This document shows positions 10,578 through 14,762 of a stretch of DNA of 32,000 bases, piece after piece (the stretch's first letter is position 1; each line of letters starts with the position of its first letter). Source of the stretch: Desulfocapsa sulfexigens DSM 10523 (GTDB taxonomy: Bacteria; Desulfobacterota; Desulfobulbia; Desulfobulbales; Desulfocapsaceae); assembly GCF_000341395.1 (NCBI RefSeq), contig NC_020304.1, forward strand, positions 3,030,001-3,062,000, given 5' to 3'. Under the pieces are notes generated by a model. It saw only the letters and a list, made by a program, of their open reading frames with translations. It had not been told where the DNA came from and made no database searches. The position numbers were made by a program, and so were the translations under genes.

Positions 10578-10670
10578 TTATAACGTTTCGGGTAACCGGA
10601 CCGCGCCACCCTAACTTTCCGCGTCAGCGCCGCCACCGTTCACGCGGTCCGGTTGACCCGCTGGTTAGCC
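10578..10670 (-). other. Integron attC recombination site (attC-1), downstream of the 139-aa cassette
   Basis: On the minus strand, R''=GGCTAAC contains the TAA stop of the 139-aa ORF. It is followed by the spacer, L''=GTCAACCGGACCGCG, a 37-nt loop, L'=CGCGGTCCGGTTACC, a spacer and R'=GTTATAA. On the + strand, TAACGTTTCGGGTAACCGGACCGCG (10581-10605) pairs with CGCGGTCCGGTTGACCCGCTGGTTA (10643-10667). The pairing has an unpaired central bubble and one extrahelical G (10655), which is the classic attC geometry. Confidence 0.8.
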
Positions 10671-11084
10671 AGTTTTACATTTTTCTTTATCAACTTCTTG
10701 ACCGACTACTATTCGTAATATCCCTGCAAACAGGAATGAACCCAACAAAGTAAATATAAAAAGGGCCACTTGACGAAGATCTGTTGTATGGAGGTAACGT
10801 TCAGCTACAAAACCAACGACTAGGATCATTGTTGAAAAGACGATACTTGATAATAAAGTGTATAGAGTAGTAATTTTAGTTTTGAATAGCGCAACTCCGA
10901 TACCAAACCCGACCATTATTATAATTGCCCCCAATCCTGTAAGACCAAGCGATACAGAAAGGGAAATTGATTTCCCCCACATTTCTTCATATTTGCCCAA
11001 AACAAATATTTGATAACAGGCATAAATTGACATATATGCCACGAAACATAGTGGGAAAACCAAGTATGTAAGAGCTTTTTTCAT
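10665..11084 (-). CDS. Small four-helix membrane protein (139 aa), single-gene integron cassette
   Basis: The ORF has four hydrophobic segments and is bounded by attC-2 (R' GTTAGCC, 11096-11090) upstream and attC-1 downstream. The 5' UTR is only 5 nt (11085-11089), with no obvious SD. Confidence 0.65.
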   Translation of the reverse strand: MKKALTYLVFPLCFVAYMSIYACYQIFVLGKYEEMWGKSISLSVSLGLTGLGAIIIMVGFGIGVALFKTKITTLYTLLSSIVFSTMILVVGFVAERYLHTTDLRQVALFIFTLLGSFLFAGILRIVVGQEVDKEKCKTG

Positions 11085-11089
11085 AGGAT

Positions 11090-11215
11090 GGCTAACGTTG
11101 GAGCTCAGGGGCTGGCGGAGATTTGCAGCACTGAACTTTGATTAACTTGGGATTTTGGTAACAAGGCTGAACTTCGGAAAACCGCGCTGCCCGCCAGTCC
11201 CTTGCAGCGGTTTGT
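11090..11215 (-). other. Integron attC site (attC-2), major part; the remaining 7 nt lie at 13184-13190 beyond the intron
   Basis: On the + strand, GGCTAAC (11090-11096) is the complement of R' GTTAGCC. GGGGCTGGCGG (11108-11118) pairs with CCGCCAGTCCC (11191-11201). The R'' complement GT|TAGAAT is split, with GT at 11214-11215 and TAGAAT at 13184-13189. The reconstituted site is about 133 nt. Confidence 0.7.
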
Positions 11216-13183
11216 GTACGCCCGACATGGGCGTGAACTAATGGGGTTAGAGTCCCCTGTAAGTGTTCCATGTAACGTTGTGAAACGTAACATAAATTAC
11301 TAGCCAATGGCAAGGGCGTTACCGTGAGGTAGGGTCTGAAGGAAGCCGGATGGCAAAGATATGGGGTGACGAACAGAAATATCATATAAGGCCGAGTCTC
11401 TGGGGCAGTCAGCACAACATAATTACGCCCGGGAACAGGAGATACGGTAAATGATGCGCTCGCATATCGGAAGTTCACGCTCTTATTCGGGGAGATCTGT
11501 ATTCCATGCAATATGAAATTATTTCCAGTGAAATTACCGGTGGGGTTCCGGTTTCCAAATATCCCGGCATAGACAGGGAATGTCCTGCCCGTCTGTGAGA
11601 TACGAAGAAAGAAGACAGACAGGAAATGATGAAATACGGCACCACTTTGAGCAATCGGAATGGTGAGAATGCAGAAGTCAGCAGAAGCCATAGTAGCCCA
11701 AAGCCGGGGGTAATGCCCCGGACACGGTGAAGGGCTGAACATTAAGGAGAGAAATATGTTGCCAAGACACCTTACGCGTACTGTGAACCTGAACGGGGGA
11801 GTAGTGTATAAGCGTATCGCGGATGAGCAGTTCTCAAACGATCAACTACTGGAACGTATAGTTTCGACAGAGAATGTCGGTAAGGCCTGGAAACAGGTGC
11901 GCAGTAATAAAGGTGCTCCCGGAATCGACGAAATAACAGTCGAGGATTTCCCGTTCACTTTTCGTGAATGCTGGCCTGAAATACGCTCAACCATACTGGA
12001 AGGGAATTACATCCCTTCTCCTGTTCAGAGAGTTGAAATACCCAAACCGGATGGCAGTACTCGTCCTCTTGGGATTCCAACTGTGCTGGATAGAGTTATC
12101 CGGCAGGCCATCGCTCAGGTTATGAGTCCTATTTTCGATCCTCATTTTTCAGAATCGAGTTGTGGGTTCAGACCGGGCAGATCAGCCCATGACGGAGTGA
12201 AGCAGATAAAGCAGTACATCAGACAGGGCTACAAAGTCGCAGTTGATATGGATTTGTCGAAATTCTTCGACACAGTCAACCACGATGTTCTGATGAACCG
12301 GGTATCACGTCGGATAGAAGATAAACGTGTACTCAAGCTTATCGGCAAATACCTTCGGGCTGGCGTAATGGTTAATGGCCGTCGTCTTGCAACTCCGCTT
12401 GGAGTACCGCAGGGCGGTCCTCTTTCGCCACTTCTTGCAAATATTCTTCTTGACGATCTGGATAAGGAACTGGAGAAACGTGGTCACCACTTCGTTCGTT
12501 ATGCCGATGACTTCATCATTTTAGTGAAAAGTCTTTCAGCAGCAGAACGGGTGATGGCCAGTGTCAGCAGATTCCTGAAAAGAGAGCTACGGCTAATCGT
12601 CAACGAGAAGAAAAGCAGTTTTGGTAAAGTGGAGGAATGCAGTTTTCTCGGGTTTGTCTTTGTGCGAGGCAAAATAAGATGGAGCGACAAAGCCTTTTGT
12701 GAGTTCAAAAGACGTATTCGTCTTTTTACCGGAAGAAGCTGGGGCGTCTCCATGGAATACCGCCTACACAAACTTGCAGAGTATGTACGGGGCTGGATAA
12801 ACTATTACGGCATTTCGGAGTATTATCGCCCGATCCCGATAGTAGACGAATGGCTCCGTCGCAGGATACGAATGTGTTTCTGGAAACAATGGAGATATAC
12901 ACGAACCAAAGTGTCCAATCTTCTCAAGCTGGGAACCTTCAAAAGACAGGCAATTATGACAGCATTAAGTCGTAAAGGCCCATGGCATCTCGCCAGAACC
13001 CTGGCTGCACAAACGGGCATGACCAACAAATGGCTGAAAGAACTTGGGTTGATATCTGTCAAAGACCAGTGGGTGAAGATTCACTATCCGGCTCAGGCCC
13101 GATGACCTTAATGAACCGCCCTATGCGGAGCCGCTTGTGGGGTGGTGTGGGGAGGGCGAGGGAAAACCTTGCCTTTACCCGAT
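11216..13183 (+). mobile_element. Group II intron, class C (attC-type), inserted in attC-2 antisense to the cassettes
   Basis: The 5' end is GTACGCCCGACATGGGCGTGAAC (GUGYG-like). The IEP ORF sits in domain IV. The domain V-like hairpin (13115-13146) has a 7-bp lower helix containing CGC with a G.U wobble, a 2-nt 3' bulge, a 6-position upper helix with one U.U mismatch, and a 4-nt loop. The domain VI-like hairpin has a bulged A (13177) 6 nt before the 3' end ...CCCGAT. The element is about 1.97 kb. Boundaries are good to about 2 nt. Confidence 0.8.
11756..13105 (+). CDS. Group II intron-encoded protein (reverse transcriptase / maturase, no endonuclease domain)
   Basis: 449 aa with RT motifs RPLGIPTVLDRVIRQA, FRPGRSAHD, GVPQGGPLSPLLANILL and FVRYADDFIILV (YADD). 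The C-terminal maturase X region has RGWINYYG. The protein ends without an HNH/En domain, as in class C introns. Confidence 0.92.
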   Translation: MLPRHLTRTVNLNGGVVYKRIADEQFSNDQLLERIVSTENVGKAWKQVRSNKGAPGIDEITVEDFPFTFRECWPEIRSTILEGNYIPSPVQRVEIPKPDGSTRPLGIPTVLDRVIRQAIAQVMSPIFDPHFSESSCGFRPGRSAHDGVKQIKQYIRQGYKVAVDMDLSKFFDTVNHDVLMNRVSRRIEDKRVLKLIGKYLRAGVMVNGRRLATPLGVPQGGPLSPLLANILLDDLDKELEKRGHHFVRYADDFIILVKSLSAAERVMASVSRFLKRELRLIVNEKKSSFGKVEECSFLGFVFVRGKIRWSDKAFCEFKRRIRLFTGRSWGVSMEYRLHKLAEYVRGWINYYGISEYYRPIPIVDEWLRRRIRMCFWKQWRYTRTKVSNLLKLGTFKRQAIMTALSRKGPWHLARTLAAQTGMTNKWLKELGLISVKDQWVKIHYPAQAR

Positions 13184-13972: not shown

Positions 13973-13980
13973 TTGATTCT

Positions 13981-14118
13981 AACAGTGTTAATACATGGAC
14001 AATGTCCATCATATTGCCTTGTATCTAGCCACTTTTTCCACTTATTTTGGTATTAATAGCTTTAAATGGAAAAAACTGTCCACTTATTACTTTTTTCTAC
14101 ATTTTGTCCATGTGATGC
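13981..14118. repeat. 138-bp repeat, copy 2, abutting the truncated 5' end of intI
   Basis: It is a direct repeat of 6586-6723 (128/138 identical). On the minus strand its end reads TATTAAC-ACT-GTT|AGAAT, 8 nt before the ATG of the 199-aa gene. Confidence 0.85.
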
Positions 14119-14124
14119 CATATT

Positions 14125-14762
14125 ATGATGGGTATCATGGAAAAGAAGGTGTTAGCACAAATGAAGGGCACCCATCTACTAATGGCCAAATTGATTTACG
14201 GAACAGGTATACGTCTAATGGAGTGTATTCGTCTACGTATACAAGATATTGATTTTGGCCAGAGGCAGCTGTTTATTCGCTCCGGAAAAGGTGGAAAAGA
14301 TAGAACGACATTCTTGCCTCGTTTTGTTCACGACGAACTTCATGAGCATGTCGAACGTGTAAAAAACCTGACATCGCCTGAACTGATGAGAAATACAGGC
14401 TAGCCAGAACATATCGAAAAGCAGCCTGGGAAACATCGTGGCAATACGTATTCCCAAGTAAGTCACGATCTATAGATCCAAGGAGCAAAAAAGAACGTAG
14501 ACATCACTTACTTGAGTCAGGCCTGCAAAAAAGCTGGTAAATCGGCTGTGAGAAAGTCAGGGATCGACAAGCGGGCAACCGTCCATACTCTTCGCCATTC
14601 CTTCGCTACACATATGCTGAAAATGAAACCAATATTCGTGTGCTTCAAGATCTTCTTGGACATGCTGATGTGAAAACAACAGAAATATATACCCATGTTA
14701 TGCGAAAGGATATTGATGGGTTGCAAAATCCGCTGGATCGTCTGTACAGCAAAGCCAAATAG
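14125..14762 (+). pseudogene. intI: Integron integrase (IntI-type tyrosine recombinase), 5'-truncated with at least 3 frameshifts
   Basis: Four segments in shifting frames read as follows. Segment 1 is KKVLAQMKGTHLLMAKLIYGTGIRLMECIRLRIQDIDFGQRQLFIRSGKGGKDRTTFLP...HVERVKNL. Segment 2 is [44 protein letters not shown]. Segment 3 is [29 protein letters not shown]. Segment 4 is [46 protein letters not shown]. The R, K, HxxR, H and Y catalytic boxes are all present. The W..W.YVFP...S.DPRS...RHH insertion that separates IntI from XerC/D is also present. About 120 N-terminal residues are missing. Confidence 0.85.

Follow-up and report, generated by a model that had tools for sequence, protein, structure and literature searches.

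Chromosomal integrons with an inactivated integrase gene (intI) are known, for example in Xanthomonas. Integron cassettes that carry anti-phage systems are also established; they come mostly from Vibrio and have been described as small (10.1101/2024.07.02.601686, 10.1101/2024.07.02.601719). Group IIC-attC introns are defined by insertion into the bottom strand of attC, at TTGT/T within the R'' box and opposite to cassette transcription (PMC7923331, PMC3001079). Here, we describe a locus of Desulfocapsa sulfexigens DSM 10523 that is compared with these systems. The window is the whole analysed stretch of 32,000 nucleotides (nt) (NC_020304.1, positions 3,030,001 to 3,062,000), and positions are counted from its first letter. 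With a probability of about 0.8, we read the locus as the remains of two integron platforms, arranged head to tail and adjoining a tRNA-Glu gene, with a dead intI and captured anti-phage genes. A preliminary description made from the letters of the sequence had proposed a chromosomal integron in decay, whose intI is a pseudogene, whose attC sites are genuine and whose defence genes are read in the direction away from intI; in this core it was supported. Its treatment of everything from 13972 to 2601 as one array was not borne out: an array next to the pseudogene (array B) and a separate unit of attI-A and a retron were found instead. The coordinates are collected in Table 1.

When the window was searched by tblastn with P0001, the intact 335-amino-acid (aa) IntI annotated in D. 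sulfexigens, fragments were found only at 14143-14756, alternating between two frames across three frameshifts. The stitched 207-aa product scored 248.8 bits on the profile TIGR02249 "integron integrase" (profile positions 109-315 of 315), versus 118 for XerC and 111 for XerD. Its best PDB match was VchIntIA (2A3V), with 178.6 bits versus 89 for a XerC-like protein, and the 2A3V alignment covers the IntI-specific insertion WQYVFPS...DPRS..RRHH. A total of 5,914 homologues were found, many of them named integron integrase. These results bear out the earlier reading of a plus-strand, IntI-type tyrosine recombinase in shifting frames with at least three frameshifts. The same reading had about 120 N-terminal residues missing; about 120 codons are indeed lost, but the gene is not truncated at its 5' end. 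Alignment of the upstream DNA with 14 related integrons showed that the start codon and codons 1-4 (ATGGAAAAGAAG, 14137-14148) are kept. These codons join residue ~125 directly, indicating an internal deletion of ~120 codons (~5-124), by which the entire N-terminal SAM-like domain (P0001 residues 15-99) is lost. Judged by profile, structure and homologue matches, 14137-14762 is an integron-integrase pseudogene. With the deletion and the three frameshifts, the intI of the window is neither intact nor potentially functional.

The attC sites were assessed with covariance models. A first heuristic attC scan was too noisy to be used alone and served to collect training sites. For model R1, 16 attC sites were taken from integrons of other Desulfobacterota and Gammaproteobacteria, none of them in the window, and 9 of its 13 consensus pairs showed compensatory changes. 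With filters off, R1 ranked attC-1 first in the 32-kb window (18.5 bits, E 0.005; plus strand only) and the interrupted attC-2 second (11090-11221, 11 bits, E 0.49; plus strand). When R1 was run on related loci with a total of 353 kb, all 25 matches (E <= 5) lay upstream of intI on the bottom strand, none of them outside cassette arrays. Model R2 was built from 30 foreign attC sites, two of which are attC-2 relatives found in a metagenome-assembled genome (MAG) of Desulfocapsa. It gave 36 bits for attC-2 (E 6e-7) and 23.4 bits for attC-1 (E 7e-4), and the next match, the probable tRNA-Glu terminator, reached 10.2 bits. The plus strand is the recombinogenic bottom strand if the cassettes are on the minus strand.

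The relatives of attC-2 in the MAG (L004, 129-259 and 1656-1786) carry no interruption, with scores of ~33 bits (33.5 for one homologue). Their L stems show paired changes, with CTGGCGG/CCGCCAG in attC-2 versus CCGCCAG/CTGGCGG and CTTGCGG/CCGCAAG in the relatives. The fold of attC-1 (z = -4.6) leaves a single G bulged out of the 3' arm on the plus strand, in agreement with the extrahelical base proposed for this site. The stop codon of the open reading frame (ORF) at 10665-11084 lies within GGCTAAC, and the placement of a cassette stop codon inside R'' was thus correct. Both sites were picked by foreign-trained models on the plus strand only, at the coordinates and with the textbook geometry first assigned to them, and on this evidence attC-1 and attC-2 are genuine. 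In a Desulfosudaceae MAG (L020, 342-9366), at least 16 attC sites of 95-129 nt that are highly similar to each other (xxxTAACGTC...TTGTTAxxx) were observed upstream of intI. By its site similarity this is a homogeneous array in a Desulfobacterota genome, like that of the Vibrio cholerae repeats (VCR).

In a true cassette, the bases that follow the G at the start (G/, with the slash marking the crossover) pair with R'' of the cassette's own attC. Cassette 1 starts with G/TTAGAA (plus strand TTCTAAC, 13977-13983) and is complementary to the attC-2 end GTTAGAA in 7/7 positions. Cassette 2 starts with G/TTAGCC (plus strand GGCTAAC, 11090-11096) and is complementary to the attC-1 end GTTAGCC, also in 7/7. 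AAC/GTT is fixed by definition, and a chance match of the four free bases is estimated at ~1/256 per cassette. Array B is composed of these two complete cassettes and a truncated SIR2-HerA cassette, cut by the IS66 remnant and a unit formed by repetitive extragenic palindromes (REP) and a RayT-like gene. The DUF6338 gene and the acidic 60-aa ORF of cassette 1 overlap. They recur as a pair in four other contigs, with an attC directly upstream in two (L131 and L132). The start codon of the DUF6338 gene was observed only 10 nt from the attI crossover (13970-13983). This distance is too short for the cassette to supply a ribosome-binding site to the gene, and the translation signals may have to come from the attI side.

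For the third cassette, the SIR2 protein matched PADLOC model PDLC04088 end to end (741.9 bits, 1-390 of 390) and is complete. HerA matched its PADLOC model at positions 3-355 of 576 only. It corresponds to the first 418 of 630 residues of a homologue in contig L043 (91% identity) and ends at the IS66 remnant. The SIR2-HerA system is broken here, because HerA lacks the last ~210 residues. Thus, the SIR2 and HerA cargo named in the preliminary description is present and bounded as a cassette, but HerA is truncated and the system incomplete. In six metagenomic contigs with 83-91% identical SIR2, the homology begins exactly at G/TTATAACGC (G/TTATAAC), with unrelated DNA upstream. A downstream attC follows SIR2-HerA in three contigs (L043, L045 and L046); in L043, an attC on the bottom strand (35.3 bits) lies behind the 630-aa HerA ORF, and its R'', TTATAAC, is complementary to the cassette start. 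The shared ends in six contigs and the attC in L043 indicate that SIR2-HerA is a circulating two-gene cassette of ~3 kb.

The two halves of attC-2 (11090-11215 and 13184-13190) had been joined correctly across an element that was left unnamed; this element is the intron. It matched Rfam families RF02001 (113.8 bits) and RF01998 (62.6 bits). Its 449-aa intron-encoded protein (IEP) contains only the RVT_1 (reverse transcriptase, RT) and GIIM (maturase) domains, without an endonuclease domain. The IEP is 54% identical to ltrA of an intron that interrupts the attC of blaIMP-26 in a class 1 integron of Klebsiella and that is also inserted opposite to its cassettes. The two introns have common ends, TTGT/GTACGCCC...CTACCCGAT/TAGAA. 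The window intron lies at the TTGT/T target of the attC bottom strand and in the opposite orientation, and the uninterrupted homologous attC in the Desulfocapsa MAG supports the site. By these features, 11216-13183 is a group IIC-attC intron, with its clade placement taken from the best matches. In contig L126, the array that carries a retron was observed to terminate in the 3' end of a IIC-attC intron (4215-4350, minus strand), 79% identical to the end of the window intron. Its insertion point is ...CCCGAT/TATAC on the bottom strand. Since this array holds both a retron and an intron end, retron RTs and intron RTs co-occur in such arrays.

The second platform was recognized from a direct repeat of 138 nt (6586-6723 and 13981-14118, 93% identical). 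In 14 related integrons, the sequence that separates the intI ATG from the cassette junction aligns with this repeat, and in all of them the similarity begins at the IntI crossover, right after AAC on the bottom strand. Each attI copy contains TGTCCAY four times, as an inverted pair and as two direct copies, and the motif is enriched in the window (21 copies versus 8.3 expected). A conserved attI layout was also observed across the clade, with TGTCCAY/RTGGACA and TTTCCA motifs arranged as one palindrome (ATGGACAATGTCCAT) plus direct copies. These motifs are candidate binding sites for IntI or a regulator, and the repeat would represent attI and the cassette promoter region. Copy B abuts the intI pseudogene. 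Copy A is replaced at about the intI start by the RayT-like gene, followed by the IS66 remnant. The arms of this "REPtron" have the core GGGGTCGGGCCGCC, and it occupies the exact place expected for intI-A. Because a second attI copy heads the retron, a second platform that has lost its intI is indicated.

The preliminary description considered the platform inactivated. This holds for intI-B, which is dead, with the caveat that an intact IntI is annotated in D. sulfexigens. P0001 is very probably encoded by the same chromosome. The stitched product is 88% identical to P0001 overall and nearly identical to it over residues 125-196 and 216-258. Because the parts of intI-B that remain encode almost the same protein sequence as the intact paralogue, the decay of this gene appears to be recent. 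The possibility that the locus is still alive, as a store serviced in trans by P0001 with attC-1 and both attI copies competent for recombination, draws on this similarity and on the structurally intact attC-1. Short-read assemblies also break at intI and attI-A, as expected with paralogous copies. Mobilization in trans was, however, not observed. The only other assemblies of the strain show the same arrangement, and attC-2 is split by the intron. We regard a living locus as possible, and hold it tentatively. In another member of the Desulfobulbales, Desulforhopalus vacuolatus DSM 9700, a partial intI match restricted to residues 1-191 was observed (L033, 6455-6765), with an intact intI on another contig (L009). 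This looks like a further genome with both an intact and a decayed integron integrase.

The retron further along the cargo, as noted in the preliminary description, was identified by PADLOC as type III-A, with RT_III-A at 466 bits, WH_III-A (winged-helix) at 57.9 and PRTase_III-A at 249.5. The proteins are co-located and the retron is complete. The winged-helix and RT genes are separated by 265 nt whose fold (-143.8 kcal/mol, z -12) has a terminal a1/a2-like pairing and a long hairpin; this stretch is a candidate msr-msd non-coding RNA (ncRNA). Rfam returned only meaningless microRNA hairpin matches for this ncRNA. In L126-L128, an 82%-identical retron lies between attC sites. Its start, G/TTCGCC, directly adjoins an attC (16.8 bits, fold z -4.4), and at its other end there is a short attC-like hairpin (z -4.0). 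The same retron was also found outside attC contexts, in L122-L125. Independent short-read contigs hold the attI-A/retron junction and break at the 138-nt repeats. Platform A very likely survives only as an attI region with a complete type III-A retron in the first-cassette position.

Alternatively, there may have been a single decayed integron, as in the preliminary description. The 6586-6723 copy would then be a small mobile repeat or a regulatory segment that was duplicated, and the retron would have been acquired in another way. The absence of an intI remnant after copy A and of an attC after the window retron, together with the retron copies outside attC contexts, would fit this explanation. 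However, the homology of copy A with copy B and the 14 intI-upstream regions begins exactly at the AA/C crossover and runs to the intI start codon, and the retron is homologous to the copy flanked by attC sites in L126 from the same G/TT onwards. In addition, AACAGTGTTAATACATGGA was found nowhere else among 128 loci except in another intI-upstream region and in the same strain's own contig. A single integron is therefore improbable.

Several results weigh against the reading as two decayed platforms. R1 and R2, with filters off, detected no attC after the retron or the 301-aa ORF and none left of 10578. Folds of 3770-3915, 3540-3680, 2185-2330 and 2420-2560 were no better than shuffles. Because no attC was found for either, the case for array A depends on the attI junction and on the homologous cassettes of other arrays. 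The motif GTTCGGC at 3900-3906 equals the R'' expected for a cassette starting with G/TTCGGC and may be an attC relic. A promoter scan found no sigma-70-type promoter in either attI copy, and the attI function assigned to the repeat rests on position and conservation. A strong score for attC-2 came only from the model trained in part on two sites of the same family, taken from another genome; the fully independent R1 gave E 0.49 for the interrupted site. No integron was found beside tRNA-Glu in 21 related loci, where the related integrons are at other chromosomal sites. Exact-protein look-ups returned only contigs from SRR25712206/7, of the same strain and the same arrangement, which limits the comparison to one strain arrangement.

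The block from ~2.1 to 14.8 kb has a low G+C content (35-41%, versus 44-48% in the flanks). It is bordered on the left by a TolC-like gene (676-2094) and on the right by tRNA-Glu(CUC), malQ and a futalosine-pathway cluster. The right flank at 17743-24871 contains, by Pfam labels, a sigma-70 gene and the futalosine (mqn) menaquinone cluster, with two radical-SAM CofH-like genes, an amidohydrolase, VitK2_biosynth, UbiX-like and UbiA genes; this is ordinary core genome. The host, a member of the Desulfobacterota, is quite different from Vibrio, as had been suspected from this cluster, and a genome scan showed that related integrons are common in Desulfobacterota. An ordinary tRNA-Glu-associated genomic or defence island, with a phage-type integrase remnant and with terminators or REP elements as hairpins, would suit the clustered defence genes, the G+C drop to 35-41% over 2.1-14 kb and the 327 nt between the recombinase remnant and the tRNA-Glu 3' end, but it is very improbable. 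The recombinase is IntI by hidden Markov model, closest homologues and specific insertion, the attC models recognize the hairpins on one strand only, and unrelated arrays contain the same cassette boundaries. In addition, the window contains no direct repeat of the tRNA-Glu 3' end, the mark of a tRNA-targeted island.

A hairpin at 15041-15089 gave a weak match (~10 bits) to both attC models, in the segment 15038-15092, and was rejected. It is probably the tRNA-Glu terminator, because it is a perfect 24-bp palindrome followed by a T run, its "R box" is AAAC/GTTT, and it abuts the tRNA 3' end. A near-perfect hairpin with 27-bp arms (GTCATTCCGGCGCAGGCGGGAATCCAG and CTGGGTCCCCGCCTGCGCGGGGATGAC; DNA fold z = -4.2) was observed at 2326-2394, between the TolC-like gene and the 301-aa ORF. 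Neither covariance model identified an attC in it. It resembles intergenic repeats of the ATTCCC-N8-GGGAAT type, and the block of low G+C content may have its left boundary here. No family match was found for the 301-aa ORF. The claim that every cargo ORF from 13972 to 2601 points away from intI stands for the cassette genes; the IEP gene (11756-13105) and the IS66 fragment (7667-8149) are both on the plus strand.

Table 1. Coordinates of the features at the D. sulfexigens locus (window positions)
Feature	Position	Strand	Description
301-aa membrane protein	2601-3506	-	No family match, no attC
GTTCGGC, possible attC relic	3900-3906	+	Only copy in 1-14200; 116 nt past the RT stop; no hairpin survives
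Type III-A retron	4022-6587	-	PRTase 5646-6494, winged-helix 5313-5639, candidate ncRNA ~5048-5312, RT 4022-5047; start G/TTCGGCC at attI-A
attI-A (putative)	6589-6737		Second copy; 93% identity with copy B; reaches approximately the intI start codon; crossover 6587/6588
REP-associated tyrosine transposase unit	6738-7690	-	RayT-like, gene 6773-7564; 24-nt inverted REP arms 6738-6761 and 7667-7690
IS66-family transposase, C-terminal remnant	7691-8156	+	Abuts the HerA break
Cassette 3, truncated	8157-10583	-	SIR2 9359-10531, HerA 8157-9413 (first 418 of ~630 residues); own attC lost
attC-1, bottom strand	10578-10670	+	93 nt, TTATAAC ... GTTAGCC; one extrahelical G on the 3' arm
Cassette 2	10584-11095	-	139-aa membrane protein (10665-11084) and attC-1
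attC-2, bottom strand	11090-11215	+	R' GGCTAAC ... L stem ... GT of R''; completed by 13184-13188
Group IIC-attC intron	11216-13183	+	Apparently intact, 1,968 nt; IEP 11756-13105; inserted at GGTTTGT/TAGAA
Cassette 1, coding part	13184-13982	-	DUF6338 protein 13373-13972, acidic 60-aa ORF 13194-13376, last 5 nt of attC-2 R'' (13184-13188)
attI-B (putative), intI-proximal conserved region	13984-14136		Copy B of the 138-nt repeat; crossover 13982/13983 (AA/C on plus, G/TT on top strand)
intI pseudogene (platform B)	14137-14762	+	Codons 1-4 fused to residue ~125; three frameshifts; short deletion ~14370-14400
tRNA-Glu(CUC)	15089-15163	-	Right-hand chromosomal flank, outside the integron

The order of the decay events may be as follows. 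The cassettes of platform B would have been inserted by IntI-mediated attI x attC recombination at G/TT. Later, the intron would have retrohomed into attC-2, whose bottom strand was folded, and would have split the R'' box of this site; the insertion would disable attC-2 and probably block read-through. An IS66 insertion and a REP/RayT-associated rearrangement may then have removed the HerA end, further array-B cassettes, if any, and the whole intI-A. Nothing at the locus would be expected to move unless the intact IntI paralogue acts in trans. The likely working remnant is the retron, which, given its complete gene set, may still be expressed and protective.

We further suggest, tentatively, that large multi-gene defence systems (a complete retron of ~2.6-2.8 kb, ncRNA included, and SIR2-HerA of ~3 kb) circulate as cassettes in marine Desulfobacterota and that the stranded cassettes and attI sites of the window are usable in trans by the paralogue. 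If so, the size and content of integron cassettes are less constrained than the Vibrio-based picture suggests. The locus extends the view that integrons store anti-phage systems from Vibrio to sulfur-cycling Desulfobacterota. That retrons and SIR2-HerA can travel as integron cassettes is backed by boundaries that recur in unrelated arrays. The locus also provides a worked example of integron decay, in which intI has an internal deletion, IS66 and REP/RayT elements have caused damage and an intron has targeted attC; the tandem attI copies may merit specialist attention. It is modestly unusual in its Desulfobacterota host, its two tandem attI regions and its multi-gene defence cassettes, including a retron. 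It is otherwise a clear but fairly ordinary example that does not overturn current understanding; IIC-attC introns and inactivated chromosomal integrons were already known.

Compared with the sedentary chromosomal integrons (SCIs) of Vibrio, the locus shares an IntI/attI platform and promoterless, attC-ended cassettes that are transcribed away from intI, some with defence systems. It differs in its host, a member of the Desulfobacterota, whereas 73% of the published cases are from Vibrio (10.1101/2024.07.02.601686, 10.1101/2024.07.02.601719). Its arrays are tiny (three cassettes, plus one or more) and both platforms are inactivated. Its cargo is multi-gene, at 2.5-3 kb (SIR2-HerA and the type III-A retron), in contrast to the published trend of small one- or two-gene systems. 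The words "retron" and "SIR2" are absent from the main text and supplement of the Vibrio SCI paper, and "Desulfo-" is absent from the supplement. The papers on integrons and defence cassettes that were searched mention no retron or SIR2 cassettes; large surveys may already list such cassettes.

The intron resembles those of class 1 integrons (S.ma.I2, and the blaIMP-26 attC intron of pIMP1572, NZ_MH464586.1) in its position in the attC bottom strand, at TTGT/T in R'', and its orientation opposite to the cassettes. The blaIMP-26 intron is similar also in its ends and in its IEP (54% identity), which lacks an endonuclease domain. The window intron differs in that it resides in a chromosomal Desulfocapsa integron and not in a clinical plasmid integron. 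As in inactivated chromosomal integrons and clusters of attC sites lacking integron-integrases (CALINs), attC cassettes are kept beside a frameshifted or deleted intI, and insertion sequence elements interrupt the array. The locus is not strictly a CALIN, because the pseudogene is still recognizable, and it differs further in having two tandem attI copies and, very probably, an intact paralogous intI in the same chromosome. The retron shares with the type III-A retrons of PADLOC the RT, winged-helix protein and PRTase, and its candidate ncRNA is strongly folded with closing a1/a2-like pairing. SIR2 matches the PADLOC SIR2 model end to end, whereas the truncated HerA leaves the system incomplete here. 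Both systems differ from their described counterparts in being packaged as integron cassettes, here and in other arrays.

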